Notes under the pieces: model-generated
Told to the model about the DNA's origin: nothing
Database searches by the model: none
What the model saw: the letters and a program-made list of their open reading frames with translations, nothing else
From: Candidatus Falkowbacteria bacterium
GTDB taxonomy: Bacteria; Patescibacteriota; Patescibacteriia; Patescibacteriales; WJLG01
Direction: 5' to 3'
Assembly (NCBI GenBank): GCA_963747695.1
Contig: CAVVFV010000010.1
Coordinates: forward strand, 197,618-261,617
DNA length: 64,000 nt
Position numbers and translations under genes: made by a program
Shown here: positions 1,149 to 60,149 of the stretch, piece after piece
Position numbering within the stretch: position 1 is the stretch's first letter
How the letters are laid out: each line of letters begins with the position of its first letter

Positions 1149-1243
1149 GATCAATTAAAATTAAAAATGAAAAATTAACAATTTCTCTAAAAAAACGCCG
1201 GATAATTTCCGATGTTTTTTAAATGATAAAAATTACTCATTAT

Positions 1244-1468
1244 AGCGCGCATTGGAAAATTTTCCGTAATCACGCAGCGTATCATTCCCGCTGGCGGGAA
1301 AGGAAGCCGTGCAAAATTGCGTTGTCCGAAGCCCCGCTTCATTTATTAGGATTTTATAAAGGAAAGCGGGGCAAGTATAGCAATTTTGCTAGGCTTCATA
1401 GCGAAGTGATAGGAAATTTGTCCAGCGCGCGATTTTTTGCGCCACTTTTTTTAAAAAAAGTGGCAAAG
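1244..1468 (+). repeat. copy 1 of a 4-copy structured intergenic repeat family
   Basis: Shares these blocks with 28782-29005, 33640-33822 (reverse) and 59957-60138: GCGCGCATTGGAAAATTTT, CCGTGCAAAATTGCGTTG, TAGCAATTTTGCTAGG, TCCAGCGCGC and GCCACTTTTTT..AAAAAAGTGGCAAA. Confidence 0.9.
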
Positions 1469-1582
1469 ATGTTGATTTGTTCATTAGTAATAATGTCGGT
1501 AATAGACCCTCCCCGTCTCGCCCACGCCCAAGGGGACACGGCGGGCTCGGCACCCCTGCCGTGGAGGGGACTTTTTTTACTT

Positions 1583-3695: not shown

Positions 3696-3780
3696 TGGTG
3701 CAGACGGTGGGACTTGAACCCACATGAATTGCTTCACAAGCTCCTAAGGCTTGCGCGTATACCAGTTCCGCCACGTCTGC
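3696..3780 (-). tRNA. tRNA-Leu (anticodon TAG), long variable arm, CCA encoded
   Basis: The reverse complement reads GCAGACG..CAAGC CTTAGGA GCTTG..GTGGGTTCAAGTCCCAC CGTCTGC ACCA and forms a cloverleaf by hand. Confidence 0.9.
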
Positions 3781-3999
3781 GAATTTACTAATCGTTTATC
3801 GGTATTAATTACCTTATTTTTAAGCAAAAAACGACTTCTGTCAATGTTGTTATAAATTAGAAATTGGAAATTTGAGATTAGCCCTCAAAACCAAATATCA
3901 AATTTCCAATTTCCAATTTCAATCTTCATTATATCATATATTTATGTTATAATAACACCATAGACCTAATAATTTATTAATCCACTAATTATCAATTTT

Positions 4000-4362: not shown

Positions 4363-4475
4363 TGCTAATTTGCGAATGATGCGAATCTACGAATAACCCA
4401 CCCCGCCTCGCCGGGCTCGGCACCCCTCCCAAGAGGGGAATTCGCGCAATTCGCATCATTAGCGAAATTAGCATT
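4361..4475. repeat. long intergenic palindrome of the gcgaat word family with a GC-rich mini-element in its loop
   Basis: AATGCTAATTTGCGAATGATGCGAAT pairs with ATTCGCATCATTAGCGAAATTAGCATT. The loop carries CCACCCCGCCTCGCCGGGCTCGGCACCCCTCCCAAGAGGGG. Confidence 0.8.
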
Positions 4476-12215: not shown

Positions 12216-12287
12216 GGTCCCTTCGTCTATCGGTTAGGACACCAGGTTTTCATCCTGGTAAGAGGGGTTCGACTCCCCTAGGGACTA
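12216..12287 (+). tRNA. tRNA-Glu (anticodon TTC)
   Basis: GGTCCCT TC GTCT ATCGGTTA GGAC A CCAGG TTTTCAT CCTGG TAAG AGGGG TTCGACT CCCCT AGGGACT A. No CCA is encoded. Confidence 0.9.
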
Positions 12288-12503
12288 CGTAAAAGAAAAC
12301 ACTCGACCTCAGTCGAGTGTTTTCTTTTACGTAATTTCGGGAGTCGAACTGGTTGCGAGCGAGCTATGAGCCGCGAGGGAACGAGCGGCGAATAAGCAAG
12401 CGACGCCAGACGCGACCAACGGGAGCGTTTGGCGGCAACCCCGGACAAAGGAGCGAAGCGCAATCCGGCGCCGAGCGACTGCGACGACTCCCCTAGGGAC
12501 TTC
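12285..12503 (+). repeat. R1: hairpin, purine-rich GC-rich element and a 17-nt copy of the tRNA-Glu 3' end
   Basis: Nearly identical to 14250-14470. Ends in CGACTCCCCTAGGGACT (12485-12501), the same 17 nt as 12270-12286 inside tRNA-Glu. Confidence 0.9.
12288..12331 (+). terminator. perfect 20-bp hairpin immediately after tRNA-Glu
   Basis: CGTAAAAGAAAACACTCGAC-ctca-GTCGAGTGTTTTCTTTTACG. It is repeated at 14253-14296. Confidence 0.7.
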
Positions 12504-14249: not shown

Positions 14250-14470
14250 CTACGTAAAAGAAAACACTCGACCTCGGTCGAGTGTTTTCTTTTACGTAAT
14301 TTCGGGAGTCGAACTGGTTGCGAGCGAGCTATGAGCCGCGAGGGAACGAGCGGCGAATAAGCGAGCGACGCCAGACGCAACCAACGGGAGCGTTTGGCGG
14401 CAACCCCGGACAAAGGAGCGAGGCGGTTTCCGCCGCCGAGCGACTGCGACGACTCCCCTAGGGACTACGG
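14250..14470 (+). repeat. R2: second copy of the hairpin, GC-rich element and tRNA-Glu 3'-end core
   Basis: Core CGACTCCCCTAGGGACT at 14450-14466. Differs from R1 at a handful of positions, mostly clustered in one internal hairpin. Confidence 0.9.
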
Positions 14471-15969: not shown

Positions 15970-16309
15970 ATCCAGCCCTTTGGTTGCTGAGTTGATGGTT
16001 TAATGATCTGACAATAGTAATCAATTTTTAAAAGAACAAATACTGAAAGAACATTAGCTTGAATCCATTTTTTCGCCTCCCTGTTAGAATTATACGGTTT
16101 ATTAATGACTATTAACAGAGTAGCAAAAAAAAAATGACATTCGTCAAATTTTTCAATAATTTAAGCCTAAAATTTCACTTATATAAATATCATCCATTTC
16201 TTAATATCCGCGATAATAGGATGTAAATTCTCAATACAGTAGTCTACTGAAAATAAAATACCGCCACGCAAATTCGCGGGCGGTATAAATTATTCTGCTA
16301 AAAAAGAGC

Positions 16310-16699
16310 TTAGGCTTTACTCCGGATACCTCTGACAGCGCCGCTTTCGATGAGCGCGTCCACCAAACACAACGGCATTCGGATCTCCTGCATCCCCACA
16401 TCTATTCCGCAGTTGACGGCTTTGACGTAGATTTCTTTTTGAAAATCATAGCCGGCTTTGGATATCGTGGCATGGAGAGCTTCCGAACACACGCGTGAAA
16501 TCCTTTGCGTAAAATAGTCCGAGACATCGTAAGCAAAGGCCAAGGCCAGCTCCCTGGTCAAGGGCGCGGAAAGATCAGTCTCGGCCGTTTCTCCGCCTGA
16601 GAGCGAATCCCATTCGGCAAAAAAGGACTGTGCTTCAGAAACATTTGATTTTCTTACCAGCTCAAGGAAATCACCGTAAGTCTTATTTTCTCTGGACAT
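16310..16699 (-). CDS. hypothetical protein
   Basis: The ATG at 16699 is preceded by AAAGGAGGATAAGA on the minus strand. 129 aa. The longer ORF to 16816 overlaps sod and was rejected. Confidence 0.5.
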   Translation of the reverse strand: MSRENKTYGDFLELVRKSNVSEAQSFFAEWDSLSGGETAETDLSAPLTRELALAFAYDVSDYFTQRISRVCSEALHATISKAGYDFQKEIYVKAVNCGIDVGMQEIRMPLCLVDALIESGAVRGIRSKA

Positions 16700-16812
16700 T
16701 CTTATCCTCCTTTGGGGTTTATTTCTCCCCAGCTTAACAAAATTGGGCATCGATGTCAAAATACAAAAAATCCGACCTGCAGCCGGATTTTTTATTTGAA
16801 TTTTTTGAAAAT

Positions 16813-17421
16813 TCACCCCATCGCTTCTTCGAATTTTTTATTCAAGACATCCCAATTCAGATTCTTGAAGAAGTCATTGATATACGATTTGCGATCCGAG
16901 CCGTAATCGATGAAATAGGCATGCTCATAGCAATCGCAGACCAAGATCGGTTCAGCTCCCCAAACCGCGCCCTGATTGTGCACGTCGCACATATAGATTT
17001 TGATCTTTTCCGCCTGGCAATCATAGGATAAGACGAGCCAGCCGCGGGTGGCCAGGCACGAAGCTTTGAAATAGCGTTCAAAGTTCTCGTAGCTGTCCCA
17101 TTTTTCTTCGATCGCTTTTTTCAACTTTCCGCCCGGAACGCCGTCGCCGCTCAGAGCGTCAAAATAATGCTCATGGAGATAAACCGCATTGACCGCGAAA
17201 GTTTCAGCATCACGCAAAGACCGGAGATCATGGAAAGTCGGATTGACAGTTTCCACGTCGCCGCCGCCTTCGCCGTAAACGTGCAATTTGTCGTGGATCT
17301 CGTTGGCTTTGCTGACATAGCCTTTGTAAAGCTTGTTGTAATGAATGTCTAAGGTTTTTTGGGAAATTCCCGATACCTTGGAAAAATCATAAGTTTTGGC
17401 TTCTAATTTTGTCCCTTGCAT
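16813..17421 (-). CDS. sod: Fe/Mn superoxide dismutase
   Basis: LDIHYNKLYKGYV (ligand His retained), HEHYF, and C-terminal DCYEHAYFIDYGSDRKSYINDFFKNLNW with the D..H ligand pair. Confidence 0.85.
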   Translation of the reverse strand: MQGTKLEAKTYDFSKVSGISQKTLDIHYNKLYKGYVSKANEIHDKLHVYGEGGGDVETVNPTFHDLRSLRDAETFAVNAVYLHEHYFDALSGDGVPGGKLKKAIEEKWDSYENFERYFKASCLATRGWLVLSYDCQAEKIKIYMCDVHNQGAVWGAEPILVCDCYEHAYFIDYGSDRKSYINDFFKNLNWDVLNKKFEEAMG

Positions 17422-17565
17422 AAATTTTTCAACGCCGATTAATTTTAAAAAACCGTCGGCGCCCCCTGCTTAAAAATTATATTTAAATACTTTGTTTATG
17501 ATAATTTAATCGAGGGATCCCTCGACAGGGCTCGGGATGACAATGTTTCTAAAATCGAAACATTG

Positions 17566-18096
17566 TCATTTTTCAAATTTTTTCTTCATCTCCTCGTCCA
17601 AAGCGATATGGTCTTTTTCCACATTCATGATCGCTTCAAAAACTTCGCGGACTCTAGCTTCGGTCGCTTCGGCCAATGCCCGGGAATAAAATTCTACTGC
17701 GTGATTTTCCCGGCGATAGGAATCTTCGATGCAATCGGCCGGATCGGCCGGACAGTCTTCTTTGACTTCCGGAGTCGTTGCCAATTTTAATAATTTCCGG
17801 AAAACCGAGGCATGTTCCCGCTCCACCTTGGCCAGGCCTTTGAACATCTTGGCCGCTTCCTTATTAGTCAGCTTGTCAGCCGCGCAGAAATAAAAAGCGG
17901 TGTTGGATAATTCCAGCTGCAAAGCATCTTCCAGATTCTTCCGGCTTTTCTCGCTTACCGCCACGCCGATATTCTCATCTTCCCAATCGTGGGCGAATTT
18001 CAATTGCTCGGCCGCCACGCCGCAGAACGGACAAGAAGCCGGTTTCTCTTTTCCCAGATAAACTTCCCCGCAAATGTTACAGACAAAAATTTTCAT
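17566..18096 (-). CDS. reverse rubrerythrin (N-terminal rubredoxin-like Cys4 plus ferritin-like diiron domain)
   Basis: CNICG..CPFCG at the N-terminus. ExxH diiron motifs at EREHASV, ENHAVEF and EKDHIAL. Confidence 0.85.
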   Translation of the reverse strand: MKIFVCNICGEVYLGKEKPASCPFCGVAAEQLKFAHDWEDENIGVAVSEKSRKNLEDALQLELSNTAFYFCAADKLTNKEAAKMFKGLAKVEREHASVFRKLLKLATTPEVKEDCPADPADCIEDSYRRENHAVEFYSRALAEATEARVREVFEAIMNVEKDHIALDEEMKKKFEK

Positions 18097-18211
18097 AAAA
18101 ATCGGCTTAATTATTGCTAATGATATTTTAGCACAAAATCAAAAGCTATCAAATCCAATTTATACTAACTAACAAGCTGACGCGGAATTAATGGATAAAA
18201 AATCGCCTACC

Positions 18212-18829
18212 CTAAGGTAAGCGATCAAACTTGGCTTTCATTTTGTCAAGAAAGAACGGATAGAGATAGGCGTCATACATCGCCCGGCAGGAAGCGATCA
18301 GAATATTGCTATGGGCGCCCAGCGTTTTCCACTCGATCTCGCCGTTGGAAAAGTATACCGAAACCTGCATTCGCGCTCCCGACCCATTTTTTTTGTCCAG
18401 ATCGACTGTTTCGTAATCGACTAGCTTAATCGGTTCGACGATGTGACCGAGGTCAGGAAACAAATCTTCCAGCCCTTTCGCAAAGCACCTGTCCAGGGCA
18501 TTGACCGGACCATTGCCTTCGGAAACATAGAGCTCGGTTTTTCCCGCGACGGAAAGCTTAATGTTCACTTCGCACGATTCCCGGTTCCGATCGTCAACGC
18601 CGGCCAAAGAATGCCACGAAACGACCCTGAAGGTGGGATTGAACAGTCCCAGTCGGAACGACAGCCAAAGCTGCAAGGAAGCCTGCGCGTTCGCCGCCAT
18701 AAAATCCATTCCTTGTTTTTCATTGGCCCGGAACGCCGCGGCAAATTCGCCGTTGCGGGATTCAGGAATCATCGCGATCAGCTCGTGCGTCAGATAATTG
18801 AGCCGGCTGGCATTTCTAAGTTTTTTCAT
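18212..18829 (-). CDS. standalone LeuA-allosteric-domain-like protein
   Basis: VSEGNGPVNALDRCFAKGL resembles the GNGPVDAL block of the isopropylmalate/citramalate synthase regulatory domain. No catalytic barrel. Confidence 0.35.
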   Translation of the reverse strand: MKKLRNASRLNYLTHELIAMIPESRNGEFAAAFRANEKQGMDFMAANAQASLQLWLSFRLGLFNPTFRVVSWHSLAGVDDRNRESCEVNIKLSVAGKTELYVSEGNGPVNALDRCFAKGLEDLFPDLGHIVEPIKLVDYETVDLDKKNGSGARMQVSVYFSNGEIEWKTLGAHSNILIASCRAMYDAYLYPFFLDKMKAKFDRLP

Positions 18830-18955
18830 CCTTAATCCTTTCGTTGCTAAAGTGCGAAAGATCGTCCCGCAGCGAGACGATCTTTTTTATGTCATTGCTT
18901 GGCAATTTGCCTCTGTCAGCATTTTAACCAAAAAAAATTATTCCTGTCAAGCCGG

Positions 18956-20029
18956 CTAACCTAATTTTTTCTTAAACCAATTTACCGACTGGATCGAGAT
19001 GGGATCGACTTTGTTCAGCCCGGCCAAATAAAAGGTTATCCAGGAACCGAGCTGTAAAAGTTCGGCCGCCGCTCCCAGCTTGGTTTTACTCTGCAATCTA
19101 AGTTCGATGCTATCGATCCGGTTTTTTTGGATGATCTCCCGCGTCAGGCGGCTGCGTTTCTTTATTCGCGGATGATCGAGATCGCTTTTCACAAAAATAA
19201 AAATCAAATTTTTCTTATTGGTCGGCGGATTGGTTAATCCTTCCAGGGCATAATGATTCAGATCGGGCAGCACCAGATAATCGGCGAAATTCTTGCTCGT
19301 TTCGCAAAACATATTGCGCCAGGCGTGCAAATTCCCCTCGATAAATTCCGCGCCGACCAGGATAATTTCCCGGCCGTAAATCTTTTGCGCCGCCAAGCGG
19401 GCCGGATTACGGCGCGGGTCAGCCGATAAAATCAACTGGGAATTATTTTTTTCCAAAGCCGAAACGATCCGCGCAATTTCTTTTTGGTCGATCTTGATTA
19501 CTCCGGCTCGGCCAAGCAACGCCAATAAAGCGAAGACGGCATAGCCCAAACCCAGCCGCGGTTGGCGGGAAGGATTTTTTGTCGTACTAAAGATAAATCC
19601 TGGCAAATTTTCTTTCTTAAGCAAAGCCGCCAATTTATTATCAGTTCCTTGCTCAGTCAAACCAGCGATCTTAGCTCCGCTTTTTTTGGCAGCCGCAAAA
19701 GCGCTCAAGGGCTCCTCGGTATTGCCGGAATAGGAAGAAATCAGATAAAGAGTCTCTCGATCGACATACCCGGGCACTTGATAGCCGGGTTCAATCAAGA
19801 TCGGAACTTTGAGTTTATCCTTGAAAACCGCGGCGACGATGCGCGCGCCCAGATTCGAACCGCCCATCCCGTTCACTACCACGCGATTTATTTTTTTATA
19901 GGCCGGGGGCAATTTTAATTCCGCCGCCTGCTTCATTATATCGGCAATCTGCGCCGGCAAGGAAGCAATCGAATCAGCGACTTTTTCTTCATTTATTTTT
20001 TTAGTATTCTTGAGATTCATATATTTCAT
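18956..20029 (-). CDS. pgi: bifunctional phosphoglucose/phosphomannose isomerase (SIS domain)
   Basis: VVNGMGGSNLGARIV, SYSGNTEE and overall two-SIS layout. 357 aa. Confidence 0.75.
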   Translation of the reverse strand: MKYMNLKNTKKINEEKVADSIASLPAQIADIMKQAAELKLPPAYKKINRVVVNGMGGSNLGARIVAAVFKDKLKVPILIEPGYQVPGYVDRETLYLISSYSGNTEEPLSAFAAAKKSGAKIAGLTEQGTDNKLAALLKKENLPGFIFSTTKNPSRQPRLGLGYAVFALLALLGRAGVIKIDQKEIARIVSALEKNNSQLILSADPRRNPARLAAQKIYGREIILVGAEFIEGNLHAWRNMFCETSKNFADYLVLPDLNHYALEGLTNPPTNKKNLIFIFVKSDLDHPRIKKRSRLTREIIQKNRIDSIELRLQSKTKLGAAAELLQLGSWITFYLAGLNKVDPISIQSVNWFKKKLG

Positions 20030-20188
20030 TATATCATAATTAGTTAATTAGTTAATTAGCCGATCAGTTGATTGAAAAATAAGTCCGAAAACTAATTAGC
20101 CAATCGACCAATCGGCTAATTTCCAATATTGACTTCCCACTGATAAAAGGCCAATATATAAGTAGTAAATAACTAATTATAAAAAAAT

Positions 20189-21010
20189 ATGTTCAACTTC
20201 CTCCACACCTTCTCGCCCACGCCGATTCTCGTTTCATTCGGCCCGCTGCGGGTTTACTGGTACGGTTTATTCGTGGTTTTAGGCATCCTGACCGCGCTGA
20301 CCGTCTCTTTGAAACTGGCCAAGAAATTCGGACTTTCGCCGAACAAAATCTTTGATCTGTCTTTCTGGATGATCGTGGCCGGCATCATCGGCGCCCGGAT
20401 TTATCATGTCCTTTTGGAATGGAACTATTACAGCCAGGATTATTGGAGCATCTTGAAAGTCTGGCAGGGAGGAATGGCGATCCACGGCGGCTTGATCGCC
20501 GGCGCGCTGGTCTTGATCTATTTTTGTTGGAAAGAAAAAGTTAATTTCTGGCTGCTGGCGGCGGTCTTCGCGCCCGGCGTCGCTTTGGGACAAGCAATCG
20601 GCCGCTGGGGAAATTATTTCAACCAGGAACTTTTCGGCACGCCGACCAATCTGCCCTGGGGAATTCCGATCGACTTTATGAACCGCCCCGACCGCTATCT
20701 GTCGGCCGATTATTTTCATCCCACTTTCCTTTACGAATCGCTCGGCGATCTGCTGATCTTCGCCGTCCTGATGCTGATCGTCGTCCAATTCCTCAAGAAA
20801 AAATGGACGAACTACAAAATTATTTTCCTCACCTATCTTATTTTATATTCGGCTTTAAGATTCAGTACGGAATTTTTGCGCACCGATACGACCGCCTATT
20901 TTTTCGGTTACCGCTGGCCGCAGGTAATCAGCCTGCTGATCATTGCCGTATCGCTGATCCTCTTATTCTTTCCCCGAAAGAAAAGGGTCGAGTTGGATAT
21001 ATCAAAATAA
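20189..21010 (+). CDS. lgt: prolipoprotein diacylglyceryl transferase
   Basis: FGPLRVYWYGLF, HGGLIG and GRWGNYFNQELFGTPTNLPWGI motifs; polytopic membrane protein. Confidence 0.9.
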   Translation: MFNFLHTFSPTPILVSFGPLRVYWYGLFVVLGILTALTVSLKLAKKFGLSPNKIFDLSFWMIVAGIIGARIYHVLLEWNYYSQDYWSILKVWQGGMAIHGGLIAGALVLIYFCWKEKVNFWLLAAVFAPGVALGQAIGRWGNYFNQELFGTPTNLPWGIPIDFMNRPDRYLSADYFHPTFLYESLGDLLIFAVLMLIVVQFLKKKWTNYKIIFLTYLILYSALRFSTEFLRTDTTAYFFGYRWPQVISLLIIAVSLILLFFPRKKRVELDISK

Positions 21011-21200
21011 TTTGAGGCTGGCTTTTCATCCCGCCCCAGTTTTTATATAAAATAATTTCACTATCCGCTATAATTATTTTTTGATAATTTATCGTCTACC
21101 CCGTTTACCAACAAAACTGGCGGCGGGATTATACGATCCCTTTCTCGCCTTCCCTCGCCCCTAGCGAGGGGCGAGGTCGGCTCAAAGGGCTTGCGTATAA

Positions 21201-21375
21201 AAAAGGGGAGAAGCCGATCATCGATCAGCCCTCCCCTGCTCAAAATGCGAAATCCTGAAAAGGAGTTGCGGAGCTCCCCGCGGAAATAAACCACCGTAAA
21301 AAGAGGTCTCGAACCTCATCAAGAGTCCGTTACCAGACTCAGGGATTCCATGGTGATCCTTCGCATTTTGAAAAA
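21201..21375 (-). ncRNA. candidate structured small RNA with its own intrinsic terminator (family unknown)
   Basis: On the minus strand, a 10-bp closing stem AAAATGCGAA/TTCGCATTTT encloses three hairpins, including a T-loop-like GAGGTTCGAGACCTC. It is followed by GGGGAG..CTCCCC plus TTTTTTA. No convincing ORF. Confidence 0.35.
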
Positions 21376-21645
21376 AATATTTTTTCCTCTTTAATATAGA
21401 GAGGGAAGTTGTTGTCCTTCCCTCCCTCGCCCTTTACTGGCAGGAAGCCTGAAACGTACTGAGGAAAAAAATCGTCCCAGGCACTTTTACCCTATCGCAG
21501 GAAAAACAAACAGTCAATCCTCTTGTCTTAAAGATAAATTATTGATAGATTATATTTTAGGAATTGAATGAAAAAGAGAATATAAAATCTTAGATCGCCT
21601 TTGGCGGGCTTTGCCTCGCCGAAGTCCCGCCTTGGCAGGACGAAG

Positions 21646-21680
21646 GCGGGTATCGTATATCGGTATTACCCCAGCTTTCT
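21646..21680 (+). pseudogene. degenerate copy of the 5' third of tRNA-Gly
   Basis: GCGGGTATCGTATATCGGTATTACCCCAGCTTT versus GCGGGTATCGTATAGCGGTTATTATGCCAGTTTT in the intact gene 96 nt downstream. Confidence 0.5.
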
Positions 21681-21741
21681 CCCCGCTACGCCGCGCGGCG
21701 CGGCTTCGGGGGACAAGCAAGCTTACAAAAACAAATAAACC

Positions 21742-21816
21742 GCGGGTATCGTATAGCGGTTATTATGCCAGTTTTCCAAACTGGTCATAGGGGTTCGACT
21801 CCCCTTACCCGCTCCA
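21742..21816 (+). tRNA. tRNA-Gly (anticodon TCC), CCA encoded
   Basis: GCGGGTA..CCAGT TTTCCAA ACTGG..AGGGG TTCGACT CCCCT TACCCGC TCCA. Confidence 0.9.
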
Positions 21817-23302
21817 AAGAGAAACAAGACCTATTTTCCAGAAATTTTTCACGCGCTTCGCGAAGCGAAGCGTAAGGTTTAATGGGCACAAATTGAATTT
21901 TTTTATCTTTCAAAAACAGGTTCGAGCCGGAAATTTTTACGGCTGAAGATTTTTTATCCAAAAGTGATGATGAAATGGCGTTTTCGCCTATATTTACTGC
22001 GTCTTTTATCCATTCCCGCATCGGTTCGAGCCAAACTATAGACCCTCTCTTAAAATCGACGATTTTCTCCTCCAGCGACTTCTTGCGAGAGAGAAGACTC
22101 GCCTTCTCCGTGAGGTATGCCTCGCGCTCTATGTCTTGGTCTAAATATGCGGTAAGAAGGCGCTGGAGCTTCGCCTCGATAGCTATAACTTCTTCTCTCA
22201 TCTCATGACTTACAGTTGCTGATAATTGGGCGGCCTCTTTTGCATCTTTGTCGGTCATTTTCAAGAGTTCTGCCGCCCAATCGGAAGGCATAGCATATTC
22301 TTTTAGGACATCAGTCAATTGCGCGATCAATTCCTTGTCTTTCATGTACGGTTGTGAGCAAGCCCCTTTCTTTTTGGTGCAGTGATAGTAAGTATATTCA
22401 TGGGTCTTGCCGGATACCTGCCTTTTTATCTTATGCTCAGCCGTAATGGAACAGCCGCACTCGCCGCACCTAAATAGCCCGCATAGCGGCTGAGGTTCGT
22501 TTTTAATCTTGTCGTGCGGTTTGCCGCGATCGGCAATCACAGCCTGCACGCGGTCAAATAATTTTTTGGAAATGATTGACTCGTGTGTGCCTTCGTAGAC
22601 TTCGCCGGCATATTGGAACAGGCCGCAATAAAAAATGTCGGATAATATGCGCGATATTCTGTCCCGCTTGAATATGCTTCCGGTGTCGGCGCGCACGCCT
22701 TTCTCCGCGAAGAACGCGGAGATATCTTCAAGCCGCGAGTTGCCCTTGGCGTAAAGTTCAAAGGCGGCAATCACCACCTTCGCCGTTTTTCTCTCCACGA
22801 TAATGCGTTTCGTCCGAACGTCGTTCAAGTATCCGAGCGGGGCGCGCGAAGGATATTCGCCTCTCTTAACTTTTTCGTGTAGTCCGCGTTTAGTGTTAGT
22901 GCTCAAGTCGATGATGAACTGGTTAGCCATGCCAAACTCCATGCTCATAACCAGCGTGTTGTCGGTCGAGCGATAGCTCCGGTCATGGGTTTGGATATGT
23001 TGGATAGTTCCCCGCTGTAAAAACCAGCTGATTTGTCCGCCGTCGATCGGATTGCGGGCGAGACGATCAAGTTTCCAGCAAACAATGCCTTGCGCCTCGC
23101 CTTTTTCAAGGCGCGAAAGCATCTCGCCAAATACAGGGCGTCCAGGTCTCTTGGCTGATTGTTTTTCGATAAACTCCTCAACGATATTCAACCCTTCGGT
23201 CTTGGCCAGCGCCCGCAAGACGGCCAGCTGATCGTCAATAGAACGGACTTGCTTGTCTTCAACGTCAGTCGATTTGCGGGCGTAGAGGAAATAATTTGGC
23301 AT
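21785..23302 (-). CDS. large serine recombinase (resolvase/invertase N-domain, recombinase domain, zinc ribbon and coiled coil)
   Basis: YARKSTDVEDKQVRSIDDQ carries the catalytic Ser motif; also WKLDRLARN and CGECGCSITAE..YYHCTKKK. The stop codon lies inside tRNA-Gly. Confidence 0.9.
   Translation of the reverse strand: MPNYFLYARKSTDVEDKQVRSIDDQLAVLRALAKTEGLNIVEEFIEKQSAKRPGRPVFGEMLSRLEKGEAQGIVCWKLDRLARNPIDGGQISWFLQRGTIQHIQTHDRSYRSTDNTLVMSMEFGMANQFIIDLSTNTKRGLHEKVKRGEYPSRAPLGYLNDVRTKRIIVERKTAKVVIAAFELYAKGNSRLEDISAFFAEKGVRADTGSIFKRDRISRILSDIFYCGLFQYAGEVYEGTHESIISKKLFDRVQAVIADRGKPHDKIKNEPQPLCGLFRCGECGCSITAEHKIKRQVSGKTHEYTYYHCTKKKGACSQPYMKDKELIAQLTDVLKEYAMPSDWAAELLKMTDKDAKEAAQLSATVSHEMREEVIAIEAKLQRLLTAYLDQDIEREAYLTEKASLLSRKKSLEEKIVDFKRGSIVWLEPMREWIKDAVNIGENAISSSLLDKKSSAVKISGSNLFLKDKKIQFVPIKPYASLREAREKFLENRSCFSLERVRGVEPL
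21812..21985. repeat. IR-A, left arm of a perfect 174-bp inverted repeat
   Basis: Exact reverse complement of 23754-23927 by manual alignment. Covers the last 5 nt of tRNA-Gly and 58 recombinase codons. Confidence 0.9.
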
Positions 23303-23753: not shown

Positions 23754-23927
23754 GAAAACGCCATTTCATCATCACTTTTGGATAAAAAATCTTCAGCCGT
23801 AAAAATTTCCGGCTCGAACCTGTTTTTGAAAGATAAAAAAATTCAATTTGTGCCCATTAAACCTTACGCTTCGCTTCGCGAAGCGCGTGAAAAATTTCTG
23901 GAAAATAGGTCTTGTTTCTCTTTGGAG
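23754..23927. repeat. IR-B, right arm of the 174-bp inverted repeat
   Basis: Encodes the same 58 codons (ENAISSS..CFSLE) on the plus strand within ORF 23727-23972. Confidence 0.9.
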
Positions 23928-24557
23928 ACGCTAAGAAACGAAATCCGAACAATTTATACCCAAATTTCTTGACGCTTTCGCCACCTGTTCAACCCCTTAT
24001 CTACCCCGTTTGTTAGAACTCATCTTGGCCAAAACGGCGGCGATTTACCGTTTCCTCTGGCAACTATTGAAGCTAACCAATAATAAAGAAAAAAACAGGC
24101 TCCTACCTGTTTTTTCTTTTATTGATTGGGGTTGGGAAAAGTTTAAATCAAATTATCGAAAAAAGTGGGCGTTATGCTTTTTTTTGTTTTCCCAAAAACA
24201 AAAGCCTCATCGATGGTGGAAACAAGAATTGACAAATACCAATAGGTCTTCTTTCAAGAAACTGCGGACGAACTTTGTTCGCCGGCAATTTCTTGAAAGA
24301 AAGTTGCCGCCTGGCGATAGAAAAGAAATTCCTCGCTACTGTCGGGCGGACAAATTTGCCCTTAAGACTCCTCACCGGGAAACCGCGGCTCCCCGAAATA
24401 TCGGAATCAATAGAAAAATAATAGTCAAAATCTTGTTAGTTATCAATGAAGCTTTCTGATTATATTGTAGCAAAAAATTGCCGGTTAATAAATACCAAAC
24501 CTGACACTAACTTAAGCCAAAATATCCGGCTTGCCAAAATAAAATTTTGCCCCTATA

Positions 24558-26084: not shown

Positions 26085-26234
26085 ATTAAAAATGAAAAGT
26101 TAAAAGTTAAAAATAGGGATTAATTATCCCTTTTTTTGTCTATAAATTTTAAAAATATTTATAATTTTTAACTTTTAATTTTTAATTGTCCCGTCTCTTG
26201 CTACATCCAACTTTCTACTCTATACTCTAAATAT

Positions 26235-28367: not shown

Positions 28368-28760
28368 ATGAAGAATTTTAACGGCGTAATAATCGAGGAG
28401 AGTCTCGAGGATAAGGATGTTTTGAAAAAAATAAATATTCTAAAAACTAAGATTGAACAAGTTACCGAGAAACATAAAACTCCCTGGATTAAACAATGGA
28501 CCTTACATACGGTTGAAGTGTCAGAAAACCGGGCTGGCGATGTCGCAGAGGAAATTAGTAAATCTCTGGATTCTAAACATAATTGGTACGCTGACTTCAA
28601 AAACAATTCTTATCACTATATAATCTTTCACGGTAAAGTTTTTTTCATCGACAGAAAAAGCAGAGAACAATACGACAAAGCTAAAAAATACGGGATCTCT
28701 TTGGGCATTCCCGAATATCAGGTGGACTTCCACCCAAACATTAAAGAATGGGAGAGATAA
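28368..28760 (+). CDS. hypothetical protein, tightly adjacent to pth (2 nt gap)
   Basis: The ATG lies 2 nt after the pth stop. 130 aa, no recognised motif. Confidence 0.5.
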   Translation: MKNFNGVIIEESLEDKDVLKKINILKTKIEQVTEKHKTPWIKQWTLHTVEVSENRAGDVAEEISKSLDSKHNWYADFKNNSYHYIIFHGKVFFIDRKSREQYDKAKKYGISLGIPEYQVDFHPNIKEWER

Positions 28761-28781
28761 ATTAAAACAAAACAACATTGC

Positions 28782-29005
28782 TGCGCGCATTGGAAAATTT
28801 TGGATAAGACGCGCAGCGTATCACCGCCGCTGGCGGGACAGGGAAACCGTGCAAAATTGCGTTGCTTGAGGAGGCGCCGCGCCGACGAGGTTAGCAATTT
28901 TGCTAGGTTTCATAGCGGAGCGTCCCAAAATTTGTCCAGCTCGCAGTTTTCTTGCCCCGTCATTTTTGCGGGGTTGCGCCACTTTTTCTAAAAAAGTGGC
29001 AAAAT
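28782..29005 (+). repeat. copy 2 of the 4-copy structured repeat family
   Basis: Same conserved blocks as copy 1, plus two extra hairpin modules. Confidence 0.9.
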
Positions 29006-29011
29006 AATTCT

Positions 29012-29407
29012 ATGGTGCGAAACGTAGCCGTAATAATTCTCTTCGACGAAGATAAAAAAATATTGCTTCAGCACCGCGCCGATAACGCCTTGAGACTTCC
29101 GGGCTATTGGGCATTTTTTGGTGGCGGAATTGAGCCGGGCGAGACCCCCGAACAGACGGTGAGACGGGAGTCTTTGGAAGAATTAAATTACCCGCTTACC
29201 AATCCCAAATTAATAATGAAACAGAATTTTATCTCGCACGGCGACGATAATGAAAAATATGTTTTTATGGAAGAATATGATCCCAATAAAAAAATCGCTT
29301 TGGGCGAGGGACAAGGTTTAGGCTGGTATCATCTTGCGGAAGCCAGCAAATTAAAAATCTTTGGCCACGATCTTGATGTTCTTGAATATATCGCGGACAA
29401 ATACTAA
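29012..29407 (+). CDS. NUDIX hydrolase
   Basis: Nudix box GGGIEPGETPEQTVRRESLEELN. The ATG at 29012 is preferred because upstream codons belong to the repeat. Confidence 0.8.
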   Translation: MVRNVAVIILFDEDKKILLQHRADNALRLPGYWAFFGGGIEPGETPEQTVRRESLEELNYPLTNPKLIMKQNFISHGDDNEKYVFMEEYDPNKKIALGEGQGLGWYHLAEASKLKIFGHDLDVLEYIADKY

Positions 29408-31234: not shown

Positions 31235-33493
31235 ATGGACTTAATCATCGTCGAGTCGCCAACTAAAGCCAAAACCATCACCAAATTCCTCGGCAAAGGT
31301 TTCGAGGTGGAATCTTCCTACGGCCATGTCCGTGATCTGCCAAAAAGCGAGATGGGTATTGATATTGAACATAATTTCGCGCCTTCCTATATCATCCCGA
31401 CCGCGGCGCGGAAGAATGTCACTAAGCTAAAAAAATTGGCAGCCAAAGCCGACAAAGTCATACTCGCGACCGATGAAGACCGCGAAGGGGAAGCGATCGC
31501 CTGGCATCTCTTAGAAGCTTTGGATATTCCAGAATCGAAGACCGAGCGTATCGCTTTCCATGAAATCACCAAAGAAGCGATCCTGGAGGCTTTGAAAACA
31601 CCGCGGGATTTGGATTTGAATCTGGTGGATGCCCAGCAGGCGCGCCGCATTTTGGATCGGCTAGTCGGTTATGAGCTATCCCCTTTCCTTTGGAAAAAAG
31701 TTGCCCGCGGACTTTCCGCCGGCCGCGTCCAATCGGTCGCGGTCCGCTTGATCGTCGAGAAAGAACGGGAAATCCAGGCTTTCAAACCAGAAGAATATTG
31801 GGATATCTTGGGTAAATTTCTGACTGCCAAAAATGAAAGCTTCGAGGCTTCACTCAATAAGATCGACGGCAAGACCGTGGAAAAATTGGCGATCAAGAAT
31901 AAAGAAGAGGCCGACAAAATTCTGGCTGATTTGAACAATGCTAAATATATCGTCGCTGGCGTCGAGCAAAAACAAAGCAAAAAGAATCCGCCCGCGCCGT
32001 TTACTACTTCCACTTTACAGCAGGCCGCCAACTCCATTTTAGGATTTTCCGCCAAGCAGACGATGATGATCGCCCAGCAATTATACGAAGGCGCCGAGAT
32101 CGCCGGCGAGGGCCAAGTCGGGTTGATCACCTATATGAGAACCGATTCGCTGAATCTTTCAGAAAAATTCTTAACCGATGCCCATAATTATTTGAAAGAT
32201 AGTTTTGACGGCAAATACGTAATCGCCGAACCGCGCAAATTCAAAACTAAAAGCAAAGGCGCCCAGGAAGCGCACGAAGCCATCCGCCCGACTGAAGCGC
32301 ACCGCGCGCCTGAATCGCTCGAAGCTTCGCTTACCCCGAATCAATTCAAACTATATAAATTGATCTGGCAGCGCGCCATGGCTTCCCAGATGCCGGAAGC
32401 AATCGTCAACTCGGCTTCTATTAATATTGATGCGCAGAACACTCCTTACCAATTCCGCGCTACCGGACAAACTTTGGTTTTCGACGGTTATCTGAAACTT
32501 TATCCGGAAAAGATCTCTGACAATGTTTTGCCGGTCGTGGCAGAAAAAGAAGAAGTCAAATTGGAAAATTTGAACGGTGAACAGCATTTCACCAAGCCGC
32601 CCGCCCGCTATTCCGACGCCACTTTGGTCAAGCAATTGGAAGAATACGGCATCGGCCGCCCTTCCACCTACGCGCCGACCATCGCCACCATCATCGAACG
32701 GAATTATGTCGCCCGCGATGACGCCAAGAAACTGAAACCGACCGATATCGCTTTCGTCGTTAATGATTTGCTCGTGGCGCATTTTCCCCAGATCGTCGAT
32801 TTCAAATTCACCGCCGAGATGGAAAATAATCTGGACGCGGTCGCTGAAGGCGAAAAGAAATGGCAGCCGGTCATCAGTGATTTTTATAAACCTTTCCACG
32901 AAAATTTAACGGCCAAATACGACGAGGTCGATAAGAATAAAATTATGCCTGAAGAAAAATCCGATGTTAAATGCGACAAGTGCGGCGCGCCGATGATCAT
33001 CAAAACCGGCCGCTATGGAAAATTCCTCGCCTGTTCGGCTTTTCCGAAATGCAAGAACATCAAATCCTTGGACGTTAATAAGGACGGTAAGGTCGATGGT
33101 AAAGACAAAGTCGCCTCAGAAGAGATGGAAAAGCTGAAAGAAAAATACAAAGACCAGGTCTGCGAAAAATGCGGATCGCCGATGATCATCCGCAACGGCC
33201 GCTTCGGTATGTTCCTCGCCTGCTCCGGCTATCCCAAATGCAAGAACATCAAGAATATGGAAGAGAACAAAGTCGGCACCGGCATCACCTGTCCCGCTTG
33301 CGGCAAAGGCGAGATCGTCCAAAAACGTTCACGCCGCGGCATCTTCTACGCCTGCAACAATTATCCCGAATGCAAGAATGCCTACTCCGGCAAACCGGTC
33401 AACGAAAAATGCCCGGAATGCGGCGCCCTATTAATGGAAGGCAAGGACGGACTCAAATGTTCCAGTAAGGAATGCGAATACGTCAAAAGCTGA
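31235..33493 (+). CDS. topA: DNA topoisomerase I
   Basis: Toprim N-terminus MDLIIVESPTKAKTI and the active-site Tyr context LITYMRTDS. Four C-terminal C4 zinc ribbons. Confidence 0.95.
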   Translation: MDLIIVESPTKAKTITKFLGKGFEVESSYGHVRDLPKSEMGIDIEHNFAPSYIIPTAARKNVTKLKKLAAKADKVILATDEDREGEAIAWHLLEALDIPESKTERIAFHEITKEAILEALKTPRDLDLNLVDAQQARRILDRLVGYELSPFLWKKVARGLSAGRVQSVAVRLIVEKEREIQAFKPEEYWDILGKFLTAKNESFEASLNKIDGKTVEKLAIKNKEEADKILADLNNAKYIVAGVEQKQSKKNPPAPFTTSTLQQAANSILGFSAKQTMMIAQQLYEGAEIAGEGQVGLITYMRTDSLNLSEKFLTDAHNYLKDSFDGKYVIAEPRKFKTKSKGAQEAHEAIRPTEAHRAPESLEASLTPNQFKLYKLIWQRAMASQMPEAIVNSASINIDAQNTPYQFRATGQTLVFDGYLKLYPEKISDNVLPVVAEKEEVKLENLNGEQHFTKPPARYSDATLVKQLEEYGIGRPSTYAPTIATIIERNYVARDDAKKLKPTDIAFVVNDLLVAHFPQIVDFKFTAEMENNLDAVAEGEKKWQPVISDFYKPFHENLTAKYDEVDKNKIMPEEKSDVKCDKCGAPMIIKTGRYGKFLACSAFPKCKNIKSLDVNKDGKVDGKDKVASEEMEKLKEKYKDQVCEKCGSPMIIRNGRFGMFLACSGYPKCKNIKNMEENKVGTGITCPACGKGEIVQKRSRRGIFYACNNYPECKNAYSGKPVNEKCPECGALLMEGKDGLKCSSKECEYVKS

Positions 33494-33639
33494 TTAGTGA
33501 ATTAGTCGATTAGGTACTTAGTCTTCAAAATTTCAAGTTGTCTCTATAAAAAAATCGTCAGCGTAAAGCTGGCGGTTTTTTGCTTTTGTCATCCTGAGCG
33601 CCTCGCGAAGGATCTGGTACTTCCAAAATCATCAAACAT

Positions 33640-33822
33640 CTTTTGCCACTTTTTTTTGGAAAAAAGTGGCGCAAAAAAACGCGCGCTGGACAAATTTTGG
33701 GACGCTCCGCTAGGAAACCTAGCAAAATTGCTATACTTGCTGACGCGGCGTCAGCTTCGGACAACGCAATTTTGCACGGTTTCCACGCTACGCGTCTTAT
33801 CCAAAATTTTCCAATGCGCACT
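33640..33822 (-). repeat. copy 3 (reverse orientation) of the 4-copy structured repeat family
   Basis: The reverse complement aligns block by block with copy 4. Lies between the convergent topA and NERD genes. Confidence 0.9.
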
Positions 33823-33880: not shown

Positions 33881-34948
33881 TTATTTTTCTGCTCCTAAAT
33901 AATTTACCAATTCATCGACCTCTGTATTTGAAAAAACTGCATTACCATAAGTAATATATCTGTTAATCTCATTAAGGGACAATATTTTTACATATTGAAA
34001 TTCTTCAGCTGGCTTGTGGTTCATCAATAAAATAATATTTTTAGGCGATATCTTTTGACTACCCCAATTTTTATTAAAGTCGTTCAGCTCCCCATTATCT
34101 ACTGCCTGATTCAATAAAACAAACATTGCAAAACTAGAACGGCGTAGTTGCTTTACCGGCGAAAATAAATCGAGATTTTCTACAGAAGCTTGACTCCAAT
34201 TTTTTGTTTCAATAATATAAATACCGGTTGGGCCAACAACTACATGATCTATCTGAATTGAATGAATCCGATCATCGTTTCTCTTATCATAAATTGGCCG
34301 ATAAAATTCTCTACGATAATCATTAACAATAAAATAAGAATCGGGAAGTTTTAAAAGTTCACTCAAAGCACGTTCTTCTCCTTCTGCCCCATAAAATAAA
34401 TTTTTATTCTCATCAAGAACGGATAGGGTAAATTTTATCCAGTTTATTTCTGGCTCCGATAAAGTATTAACCCATTTTTCAGTGTTGTTGCTTTTATCTT
34501 CCCATTCCTTCTTCAATGCTTCGATAACTCTAATCTCAGAATAAAAAGGTTTTTTAACCTCCTCTTCGAAATCCAACTCCAGAACCGACATTCTATTATG
34601 TAATTTTTTTCTTTTAAACCAAGAGGTTAATTCAAATATAGGATTATTTGTTTTTTTCAAACAAGCTATTTGCCGAAAAATATCCGCCTTTTCTTCTTCT
34701 AATAATTGTCTTCTTCCTTTTATTGCCCTGTCTAGCTCAATCGTCATTTTTTCACTAACCGACGCAAGTCTGCTTATGTCCAGCGATAAACGCTCCCTGT
34801 TTTTCTGCATTAATAACTCTAAAGAACTTTGATAATTATTTCGAAAAAAGCGAATATCTTCTAAAGTTTGAAAATTATCAACTTTCTTCTCGCTCAACTT
34901 TTTTAAAAGTTCGGTTAACGATCCGATTTGATTATATGTCTTAGCCAT
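33881..34948 (-). CDS. NERD (nuclease-related domain) protein with N-terminal coiled coil
   Basis: IQIDHVVVGPTGIYIIETKNWS is the NERD core. The N-terminal 200 aa are heptad-rich. Confidence 0.65.
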   Translation of the reverse strand: MAKTYNQIGSLTELLKKLSEKKVDNFQTLEDIRFFRNNYQSSLELLMQKNRERLSLDISRLASVSEKMTIELDRAIKGRRQLLEEEKADIFRQIACLKKTNNPIFELTSWFKRKKLHNRMSVLELDFEEEVKKPFYSEIRVIEALKKEWEDKSNNTEKWVNTLSEPEINWIKFTLSVLDENKNLFYGAEGEERALSELLKLPDSYFIVNDYRREFYRPIYDKRNDDRIHSIQIDHVVVGPTGIYIIETKNWSQASVENLDLFSPVKQLRRSSFAMFVLLNQAVDNGELNDFNKNWGSQKISPKNIILLMNHKPAEEFQYVKILSLNEINRYITYGNAVFSNTEVDELVNYLGAEK

Positions 34949-34998
34949 ATTGATAAAGGTAATTCAAAACCGCCCCAAAAGGAGCGGCTTTGATATTC

Positions 34999-35400
34999 TT
35001 ATTTCTCCTTAACCTTCACTTTCTTCGGTTTTTCCGCTTTTACTTCCTCTGCGGGGCACTCTTGGCAATCATCGCATTCTTCATCGTCGTCGCACTCGCA
35101 TCCTTCGCCACCTTGCTTGGCGTGCCAAGCCTTGGCGATCTCGACGATCTTCTTGAGGCCTTCGCCGATGAGGAATAGATAGCCGGCGCTGGAATCGACT
35201 TTTTCCTTGACCGCATCGATCACACCTTCGATCTTATCAAAGATCCGGCGCACATCTTTGAAGATTTTAAAAACGTTGCGGGTCATCGCGACGAGATAAA
35301 ACATCCCCCAGCAGAGAAAGATCGTAAAGGCGGCGACGCAGGCGGCGATAGTCAGAAGTAAAATGTCGTGAGAAGTTGAGAACATATTAGTAGTCGTCAT
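34999..35400 (-). CDS. membrane protein with an acidic Cys-rich C-terminal tail
   Basis: TM helices near the N-terminus. C-terminal GGEGCECDDDEECDDCQECPAEE, then a Lys-rich end. Confidence 0.45.
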   Translation of the reverse strand: MTTTNMFSTSHDILLLTIAACVAAFTIFLCWGMFYLVAMTRNVFKIFKDVRRIFDKIEGVIDAVKEKVDSSAGYLFLIGEGLKKIVEIAKAWHAKQGGEGCECDDDEECDDCQECPAEEVKAEKPKKVKVKEK

Positions 35401-38509: not shown

Positions 38510-38542
38510 ATTATTAGGTACTTAGTTAATTAGGTGCTTAGG
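38510..38542. repeat. left arm of the inverted repeat enclosing the four-helix-bundle gene
   Basis: ATTAGGTACTTAGTTAATTAGGTGCTTAGG pairs with CCTAAGCACCTAATCGACTAAGTGCCTAAT at 38928-38966. Confidence 0.75.
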
Positions 38543-40088: not shown

Positions 40089-40505
40089 TTATTTCGCTCT
40101 TAATATTCTTGATCTCGAATAAGATATTAAAACCAATTCCAATAAAGCCAGTCCGACGATTAGGAAGGAGATGTTCATCCAGGTAAAAAGATGGTGTGAC
40201 AGAAGGAATAAGGCGGCAAGGATCAGGATGGCGAATAAAAATGATTGCCGGAAAGCCTCGCCGACCGCGCGGAAGGCGAGCTGCTGCTTTAATAAGGAAA
40301 AGCGGAACAAAAAACCGAAGATCGTGCTTGTCCCCAAAACCGCCAAAAACAGCGAGGCATAGAACAACGCGAAACCCGGCCAATTGGTAGAAATTGGGTT
40401 GATATTGAAAATTACGCCGACAAAAATCCCCCAGCAGATCAGGGTAGTGAAGACCATTAGTAGCAGGTAACTCTTTAGGGTCATTTTAATTGGTTGATTA
40501 GTCAA
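40089..40505 (-). CDS. polytopic membrane protein, unknown function
   Basis: Four hydrophobic helices; 138 aa. Confidence 0.45.
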   Translation of the reverse strand: MTNQPIKMTLKSYLLLMVFTTLICWGIFVGVIFNINPISTNWPGFALFYASLFLAVLGTSTIFGFLFRFSLLKQQLAFRAVGEAFRQSFLFAILILAALFLLSHHLFTWMNISFLIVGLALLELVLISYSRSRILRAK

Positions 40506-40590
40506 TTAGTTAATTAGTTTTATAGTTAACGAGCGTATTTTGCTCAACTAATTAACTAATTAACCAATTAACATTCTGAAAATAAAAAAA

Positions 40591-59956: not shown

Positions 59957-60138
59957 CAGCGCGCATTGGAAAATTTTGGATAAGACGCGCAGCGTAGAAA
60001 CCGTGCAAAATTGCGTTGTCCGAAGCCAGCGCCTCGCTGGCAAGTATAGCAATTTTGCTAGGTTTCATAACGGAGCGTCCCAAAATTTTCCAGCGCGCAG
60101 TTTTTTGTGCCACTTTTTTCTAAAAAAAGTGGCAAAGA
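59957..60138 (+). repeat. copy 4 (shortest, core version) of the 4-copy structured repeat family
   Basis: All conserved blocks are present without the extra modules. Confidence 0.9.
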
Positions 60139-60149
60139 TATTGATAATA

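Follow-up and report, generated by a model that had tools for sequence, protein, structure and literature searches.

Among the dispersed palindromic repeats of bacterial genomes, the ERIC/IRU (~127 bp) are intergenic imperfect palindromes that occupy different positions in different species and are predicted to form a long RNA hairpin, and the Correia elements (nemis or CREE) of Neisseria are miniature inverted-repeat transposable elements (MITEs) of 104-157 bp, with inverted arms, duplex transcripts, short internally deleted forms, strain-specific locations and positions near gene ends (PMC3184786). Here we analyse a stretch of 64,000 nucleotides (hereafter the window) from the genome of a Candidatus Falkowbacteria bacterium (contig CAVVFV010000010.1, positions 197,618 to 261,617 of the forward strand), in which an inspection of the letters alone, herein called the sequence-only reading, had noticed four similar intergenic hairpins. 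For these sequences and their relatives we propose, as a moderately probable explanation, a new family of non-autonomous, non-coding, structured and dispersed intergenic repeats of the ERIC/Correia/BIME kind, specific to one Patescibacteria lineage. No account of dispersed structured repeats in Patescibacteria or the Candidate Phyla Radiation was found by full-text literature searches.

Searches of the window with an nhmmer profile and with a covariance model (R1, 219 positions and 51 pairs) agreed on exactly four copies, without any diverged extras, each copy lying within 1-5 nt of the place indicated by the sequence-only reading. These are c1 (1245-1476, plus strand, between the genes for a type IV secretion system (T4SS) pilin and a TyrRS/TrpRS-type synthetase), c2 (28783-29011, plus strand, between an open reading frame (ORF) of 130 amino acids and a NUDIX gene), c3 (33631-33821, minus strand, between the genes for NERD and topoisomerase I (TopoI)) and c4 (59959-60145, plus strand, between the GT2 and Mur ligase genes). 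Gene calls placed all four between genes, as had been claimed, in housekeeping contexts unrelated to each other, and the copies could be aligned end to end. The 18-mer CCGTGCAAAATTGCGTTG occurs four times in the window against 0.09 expected, and the 17-mer GCGCATTGGAAAATTTT occurs four times exactly and, allowing up to 3 mismatches, six times against 1.53 expected. The RNA folding z-scores of c1-c4 range from -4.7 to -8.8 on either strand, and the z-score for folding as single-stranded DNA (ssDNA) is -10.1, none of 200 shuffled sequences folding as well. Taking these counts, z-scores and shuffles together, the presence of four copies is far beyond chance.

A further 24 copies were recovered from metagenome contigs and from related genomes and metagenome-assembled genomes (MAGs); one metagenome scan gave 16 true copies (L118-L134). 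From the alignment of 28 copies, read 5' to 3' on the strand carrying the T-run, the unit is non-coding, ~180-260 bp in length, and comprises, in order, a long hairpin of 140-190 nt with imperfect pairing, a T-run, the perfect palindrome GCCAC-T7/A7-GTGGC (24 bp) and a short conserved tail. Similarity between copies reaches ~9-20 nt upstream (AAATAAATTTCCTTRTA) and ~12 nt downstream (AAAGATnTTTGA) of the limits given earlier, the upstream part being an A/T-rich leader that is missing in about 6 copies. The paired blocks pointed out from the letters are all present (GCGCGCATTGGAAAATTTTGG with CCCAAAATTTGTCCAGCGCGC, GACGC..GAAACC with GGTTTC..GCGTC, GTGCAAAATTGCG with TAGCAATTTTGCTA, and the two halves of the palindrome). 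The main hairpin is built from P1 (GCGCGC/GCGCGC), the position 22:219 that alternates among A·A, C-G and A-U, P2 (GGAAAATTTT(GG)/(CC)AAAATTT-G-TCC, with a bulged G), a bulge of 4-5 nt between P2 and P3, P3 with a 3x3 loop inside and next a 4-bp helix with a bulged G, P4 (GAAACC/GGTTTC), P5 (GCAAAATTGC/GCAATTTTGC), and an apical region in which conserved flanks (GUUGUYYGAAG...CAAGUAUA) enclose an apical hairpin of at least four forms. P1-P3 make up inverted-repeat arms of ~25-30 nt, and the interior (P4, P5 and apical hairpin) differs among copies and can be deleted or replaced. Optional sub-hairpins are confined to three fixed sites, such as the side hairpin that precedes P4 in c1, c2, L134 and L126a, and the terminal structure of the stem varies from a 3-nt loop to branched hairpins, with the fixed bulges (G214 and the A·A position) being kept.

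On the 3' side of P1, most copies carry A/G plus T6, followed by the palindrome and the downstream consensus; in c2, L134 and L137a an extra GC hairpin is inserted between the T-run and the palindrome, interrupting the T-run. The sequence-only reading had described a nested hairpin followed by a terminator-like hairpin. Both hairpins do fold, but the arrangement of an intrinsic terminator, a GC-rich stem directly followed by a U-run, is found in most copies at the main hairpin (GCGCGC stem plus A/G and T6), and the GC stem plus T-run was scored as terminator-like in three of the four window copies. The second hairpin is not a canonical terminator, since no T-run follows the palindrome on either strand.

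The folded structure was examined for covariation in the 28-copy alignment, for which RNAalifold independently gave the same helices. Standard pairs occupy 95.6% of 1,426 pair cells, compared with 33-51% after shifting the partners by 1-3 columns. Nine pairs are altered on both sides (82 cells), to be read with the caveat that the copies are related by descent and covariation counts are not independent events, and the covariation score is 0.137 versus 0.068±0.005 in shuffled alignments, none of 500 of which reaches 0.137. The double changes include A-U to G-C in P4 (10 times), C-G to A-U and to U-A in the palindrome (3 times; GCCAC/GTGGC to GCAAC/GTTGC and GCTAC/GTAGC), and the replacement of P5 in L135b, from GCAAAATTGC/GCAATTTTGC to GCAAAATTTCA/TGAAATTTTGC. 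Template switching within quasi-palindromes can yield matched DNA changes without selection. Simple homogenisation of the two arms is argued against by the persistence of the same bulges and loops. We conclude that the structure carries real covariation and that the arms have kept their pairing.

The structure favours the strand of the T-run, on which G·U pairs exceed A·C pairs by 44 to 9, or ~19 to 6 when doubtful apical pairs are subtracted. GCGAGC is present on both sides of P1 in 11 of the 28 copies, forming tandem G·A/A·G on the same strand and C·T/T·C on the other.

In order to see the distribution among relatives, eight syntenic loci of the TopoI neighbourhood were compared, with copies counted per ~17-22 kb by nhmmer and the covariance model. 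Two copies are present in L135 (TopoI amino-acid identity 95%, as for L136), four within 22 kb of L140 (94%), and two, both remodelled, in L137 (93%); there are none in L138 (91%), L171 (90%), L139 (83%) and L170 (75%). The genes of these relatives are 66-82% identical to the window in nucleotide sequence, and the ordinary spacers cannot be aligned. The spacer between LytR and Der carries a full copy in L140 and, in L137, a short form (L137:218-355) consisting of P1-P3 only, with a GCA loop at its tip; no copy lies in this spacer in the window (26085-26234), L138 or L139. L137, L138 and L171 lack the element at the position of c2, and L140 and L137 both have an orthologue of c3, sharing its site and orientation. 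Close relatives are therefore polymorphic for the presence of copies at orthologous sites, with 0 to 4 copies per syntenic ~20 kb; such polymorphism is a mark of MITEs, for which the sequence-only reading had proposed a check. Copies are gained or lost at single intergenic sites while the housekeeping genes have diverged by ~20% in nucleotide sequence. Because the sites differ among close relatives, the element behaves as a dispersed palindromic repeat and not as a conserved RNA gene, and the reading as a mobile repeat is favoured.

Copies across species are 73-92% identical, the best pairs (92%) being at non-orthologous sites, and this high identity reflects either constraint or recent spread. 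In the L137 orthologue of c3 the entire P5/apical domain is swapped for a GC hairpin and a further hairpin is inserted before the palindrome; since the L137 copies lose or replace the interior while the arms, T-run and palindrome persist, the interior is dispensable. There are two matched haplotypes of P2 and P3, TTTTGG-ATAA-GACGC/GCGTC-CCAAAA and TTTCC-GTAA-TCAC/GTGA-TA-GGAAA, and the one chimera, L126b, disrupts the pairing. The modules (P1 type, P2/P3 type, P4 type and apical type) are seen in all combinations. In addition, c4 is 92% identical to non-orthologous copies of L140 and only 82-85% to the other window copies, indicating subfamilies common to several species, which together with the free combination of modules points to recombination between copies. 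A scan of a genome collection with the generic palindrome GCAAAATTGC..GCAATTTTGC gave L006 as the sole true copy among the matches listed, the others being unrelated hairpins from many phyla. L006 (DATJQC010000029.1) is a full copy filed in a 'Candidatus Nanoarchaeia' MAG, on a contig encoding MurJ and acetate-CoA ligase; transfer across domains was rejected, because MurJ indicates that this contig is bacterial, most likely mis-binned.

The four window copies illustrate the variation in detail. In c1, the upstream A/T-rich leader (1228..1244, plus strand) is a weak match to the family consensus, and the main imperfect hairpin (1245..1430) has 'type B' P2/P3 arms (TTTCCGTAATCAC / GTGATAGGAAA), the optional side hairpin CCCGCTGGCGGG and a long apical hairpin with an A/T loop. 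The T-run GATTTTTTG (1431..1439) lies immediately 3' of the closing GCGCGC stem, followed by the palindrome, H2 (GCCAC-T7-A7-GTGGC, 1441..1464), and the conserved tail AAAGATGTTGAT (1465..1476), which is either a part of the element or its preferred target. In c2, also on the plus strand, the main hairpin (28783..28944) has 'type A' arms and the side hairpin, its 3' closing stem is GCTCGC, giving one C·T mismatch, and the interrupted T-run (28945..28977) includes the inserted small GC hairpin GCCCCGTCATTTTTGCGGGG (28954-28973); H2 (28978..29000) and the tail (29001-29011) follow, the latter adjoining the NUDIX start codon at 29012. On the minus strand, c3 has a 'type A' main hairpin (33681..33821) with the 5' stem GTGCGC, giving a G·U pair on that strand, the T-run GTTTTTTTGC (33671..33680), H2 (33645..33670) and the tail AAAAGATGTTTGAT (33631..33644), part of which (TGTTTGAT...) is present also at the element-free orthologous site of L138. 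The plus-strand copy c4 is the shortest form, 'type A' and without the G bulge (main hairpin 59959..60098), with the T-run AGTTTTTTGT (60099..60108), H2 (60109..60133) and the tail AAAGATATTGAT (60134..60145), ending 4 nt short of the stop codon (60150) of the convergent Mur ligase gene. The GC skew is negative over the whole window, and with three copies on the plus strand and one on the minus strand a leading/lagging bias is uninformative.

No conserved ORF was found on either strand across the copies, and a small protein or type I toxin was rejected, ATG ORFs being absent from many copies, their frames different and the indels not multiples of three. In L140 public gene calls of 45 and 91 amino acids overlie element copies (3778-3915 and 12219-12494), and are probably spurious ORFs. 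The earlier statement that the element is no named RNA family holds: at the gathering thresholds of Rfam 15 the whole window matched only 5 tRNAs, and searches of c1, c3 and c4 at E<=5-10 gave best matches of 10-26 bits against thresholds of 42-211 bits, corresponding to the noise of miRNA/sRNA hairpins, so that no Rfam family was matched at E<=10 either. Blastn gave no match to plasmids or phages, nor, with a word size of 11, to 5,426 complete E. coli genomes, which contain ERIC and REP/BIME; with no copies in IMG/VR, where the 16-mer matches are chance, an origin from phage, plasmid or E. coli was rejected. Likewise rejected were a DNA uptake sequence, the AAAAAGTGGC motif being confined to the elements, and IS110-type bridge RNA, TnpB/IscB guide RNA, retron and TIGR arrays, for which there was no partner protein at any locus and no Rfam match, the internal loops being constant and not programmable. 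A consensus scan upstream of the four window copies revealed no sigma-70 promoter, and the flanks of further copies share no conserved -35/-10 promoter ahead of the element; the leader keeps only a -10-like TAAATT, ~7 nt before the first paired base, without -35 box or extended -10. The host's own promoters are canonical, of the general form TTGACA-N17-TAnnnT (TTGACA-N17-TAAAAT before a tRNA and TTGCTA-N17-TATACT before der). The lack of a conserved promoter weakens the case for a stand-alone RNA gene.

As an ERIC does, the element keeps a conserved sequence at shifting chromosomal positions between genes, forms an imperfect palindrome predicted to give a long RNA hairpin, and has size variants arising by indels at fixed internal sites; properties of this kind are reportedly ascribed to ERIC also by Hulton 1991 and by Wilson & Sharp 2006. 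ERIC, however, has no sequence similarity to the element and belongs to another host phylum, and the element is longer and carries the extra 3' module of T-run, perfect palindrome and tail. For ERIC-type MITEs, TA-flanked terminal inverted repeats and target-site duplications are reported, which were not seen here. The element is similar to Correia in its inverted arms giving a long duplex RNA, in internally deleted short forms, in sites differing between close strains and in location near gene ends, but Correia carries terminal inverted repeats of 26 bp at its extreme ends, together with a TA duplication, an IHF site and promoters directed outward, and no such feature was demonstrated for the element. 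With REP/BIME of E. coli and SPRITE/RUP/BOX of S. pneumoniae the element has in common that it forms mosaics with other small GC-rich hairpin repeats, and it resembles SPRITE in its terminator-like appearance, a T-run coming after a GC stem. In contrast to REP, a single hairpin of 20-40 nt, often with a GTAG head and linked to RAYT, the element is ~200 nt with five helices, and no Y1/RAYT gene is present at the loci examined. The element lies outside the definitions of both REP and attC; by analogy it appears to work like ERIC/Correia-type repeats, and by sequence it is a member of none of these families.

Judged from the gene calls, some 17 of 25 copies have the orientation of the upstream gene, and for most the downstream gene is convergent. 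Two intervals of this clade stand out as hot spots for variable genes. One, between Pth and DprA (window 28368-29407), holds hyp130, NUDIX, Def or DUF2268; a second, between TopoI and PheT (window 33881-35400), holds NERD, GmrSD, Abi_alpha, TrmB or DUF5362 (L135, L137, L138, L140 and L171 compared). Relative to the element, the 5' neighbours are variable accessory and defence genes, and the 3' flanks are conserved. At Pth-DprA, three genomes have hyp130, Def or DUF2268, in each case 3-21 nt upstream of a copy in the same orientation, and in L137, L138 and L171, where the copy is missing, none of the hyp130, Def and DUF2268 ORFs was called. In the TopoI-PheT island NERD, Abi_alpha or GmrSD adjoins TopoI, and inverted pairs of copies, with their 5' ends inward, bracket cargo in L140 (Abi_alpha plus a 148-amino-acid ORF) and L129 (a SIR2-like ORF). 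This 5'-side polarity is suggestive only, because the cases reduce to ~3 independent loci.

The only recombinase in the window is a large serine recombinase of 505 amino acids (Resolvase, Recombinase and Zn_ribbon_recom domains; 21785-23302, minus strand), which abuts a tRNA gene (21742-21813); no link between it and the element is visible. An inverted repeat of the final ~182 nt of its gene, 98% identical, lies at 23754-23935, and the whole could be an integrative or invertible module. A connection with the element was rejected, as neither the gene nor this 182-nt repeat has sequence in common with it.

The polarity and the strand preference bear on a rival explanation, in which folded ssDNA of the element would be recognised as a site of recombination or as the end of a transposon, like attC or the ends of IS200/IS605, beside which an enzyme inserts or exchanges accessory and defence genes. 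The strand-specific G·U excess and tandem G·A fit such a site, and the conserved stem with fixed bulges and variable terminal structure resembles the layout of attC sites, which are strand-specific imperfect hairpins with conserved bulges and terminal structures of variable length, directly downstream of variable, tightly packed ORFs. Palindrome-associated elements derived from IS200/IS605 (PATEs) offer another likeness: their ends are asymmetric and bear hairpins, with neither terminal inverted repeats nor target-site duplication, and neither was seen at the outer ends of the element, where a short specific target at one end is possible, as leader- and tail-like sequences occur at two empty orthologous sites. 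Yet attC has R''/R' cores, intI, attI and cassette arrays and measures 57-141 nt, whereas the hairpin of the element has 140-190 nt, lacks the core motifs (RYYYAAC / GTTRRRY) flanking P1 and forms no cassette array; it is also much longer than the end hairpins of IS200/605. Pfam lists for the loci examined contain no tyrosine recombinase, HUH/Y1 transposase (TnpA), TnpB, IS110-type gene or integrase, and no Rfam match to omega-RNA or reRNA-type families was obtained. Furthermore, the consistent polarity is limited to the few independent loci given above, L140a and L137a lie between core genes with no cargo, and the copies are 5-27 kb apart among housekeeping genes. We therefore regard a folded-ssDNA site as unlikely. 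A still bolder form, in which the element would be the cis-acting site of an undescribed ssDNA- or structure-dependent gene-capture system of Patescibacteria, a folded, strand-specific landing site analogous to attC or an IS200-type end, beside which an enzyme would insert or exchange new accessory and defence genes such as NERD, Abi, GmrSD, SIR2, NUDIX and Def, seems to us quite improbable.

The same covariation, together with the conserved internal loops, including an apical UYYGA motif that may resemble a T-loop, and the tandem G·A and G·U excess on the U-run strand, could also be expected of a multi-copy family of independently transcribed, trans-acting small RNAs, for instance protein-binding or sponge RNAs, with a promoter in the A/T-rich leader and an end at the U-run. 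The -10-like TAAATT of the leader and the mild bias for co-orientation with the upstream gene are in agreement with this. The promoter, however, has neither a conserved -35 nor an extended -10 in a host with canonical promoters, and the leader itself is missing in 6 or more copies. Being absent from relatives with 90-91% identical TopoI, the element cannot be an essential conserved RNA; the supposedly conserved apical domain is deleted or replaced in L137; about one-third of the copies would be read antisense from their neighbours; and an RNA gene leaves unexplained the conservation of palindrome and tail past the presumed terminator. Small RNAs are thus a doubtful explanation, to which we give little weight. 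The terminator-like score of three window copies could also be taken to mean ordinary gene-specific intrinsic terminators, alike through local duplication or by chance. Against it stand the 74-92% identity over ~200 nt at unlinked loci and across species, the short terminators that the flanking genes already own upstream of the element, a hairpin far beyond the length of an intrinsic terminator, and the chance expectation for the core 18-mer, so that this reading is effectively refuted and its probability very low.

The preferred explanation, a structured dispersed repeat, has several observations against it. Pfam scans of the 64-kb window and ~150 kb of related loci revealed no transposase or recombinase adjoining any copy, nor the autonomous element or transposase with matching ends that is expected as the partner of a MITE. 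The flanks of ~29 copies show no direct repeat, where the sequence-only reading had recommended looking for target-site duplications; in the comparison of filled and empty sites at two loci, the junctions are blurred by A/T-rich, diverged spacers and the outer limits of the element could not be placed. The element is asymmetric, with T-run, palindrome and tail beyond the 3' arm of the inverted repeat, a layout that sets it apart from the textbook MITE. The conserved internal loops, tandem G·A and one-strand G·U excess suggest that the element is not simply passive repeat DNA. For many copies the upstream gene has a short terminator of its own, 15-45 nt before the element, for which reason read-through may be low and a role as terminator partly redundant, and about one-third of the copies are antisense to the nearest upstream gene, as is L119 between rpoC and an M50 peptidase gene. 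The alternatives first raised, a MITE-like mobile palindrome or a structured RNA or terminator, thus find support in site polymorphism and covariation, and lack support as regards a nearby transposase, the symmetry of a MITE, a conserved promoter and a T-run after the second hairpin.

As to the limits of the unit, the leader and the reverse-complemented tail match, by inspection, at only ~8 of 15 positions. Element-free orthologues keep tail-like sequence (TTGTTTGATAATTTTGG in L138 and ATTTTTAAT in the LytR-Der spacer of the window), both also having leader-like sequence; since these sequences are present at two empty sites, the conserved leader and tail may be a preferred A/T-rich target and not a part of the element. 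This is countered by L135b, which has its own tail beside the ancestral flank.

If the preferred explanation of a dispersed structured repeat is right, the element would spread as DNA, either by means of a trans-acting enzyme or through recombination between copies. On read-through by RNA polymerase, the U-run strand would form a long irregular duplex followed by U6, which might be expected to stop or attenuate transcription and, by analogy with Correia and ERIC, to be a substrate for double-strand-specific RNases such as RNase III. Neighbouring transcription units would thereby be insulated, and the copies could act as dispersed homology bordering variable gene islands.

Other repeats of the window were noted in passing. 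Repeat B (AATAATGTCAGGAATAGACCCTCCCCG...CGGCACCCCTCCC..GGGG), a GC-rich hairpin ending in a T-run, is located at 1489-1580 and ~4390-4440, and repeat C (GATCCTTCGCGnGGCGCTCAGGATGACAA), a hairpin beside the TopoI terminator, at 33586-33625 (minus) and 17510-17543 (plus) and in L122, L127, L138 and L140. Repeat B follows 10 of 29 element copies, often directly downstream, and as the element often adjoins these small GC-rich hairpin repeats the arrangement is a BIME-like mosaic; repeat C is independent of the main element, being present in element-free L138. Stop-codon-rich tracts of 8-nt period (TTAATTAG) lie directly after gene ends at 20020-20067, 33482-33513, 38510-38541 and 40478-40525, and L135 and L137 have conserved the one that follows topoisomerase I. 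The segment 12285-16261 is a tandem duplication of ~2 kb (repeat families D1, D3 and D4, 70-95% identity), with paralogous ORF pairs (12563-13225/13315-13971 and 14530-15204/15286-15969) that have no Pfam match. A 48-nt palindrome (TACGTAAAAGAAAACACTCGACC..GGTCGAGTGTTTTCTTTTACGTA) is present at 12286-12333 and 14251-14298, beginning right after the tRNA at 12216-12287. Finally, L170 carries a Cas12a-Cas4-Cas1-Cas2 locus (15972-21845), 4-10 kb from TopoI and with no element copy.

Extrapolation from four copies in 64 kb indicates that the element may occupy ~1% of the DNA of these organisms. Gene callers already put spurious ORFs on its copies, as in L140. On the ordinary reading alone, it would add one further family of the ERIC/BIME type. 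Since the genomes are small and transposase-poor, and the repeat is gained and lost between close species, it is useful as a marker for the dynamics of these genomes. Its polarity toward variable defence and accessory genes is what most deserves to be followed up, and the element may help to explain the exchange of variable defence islands in these organisms.

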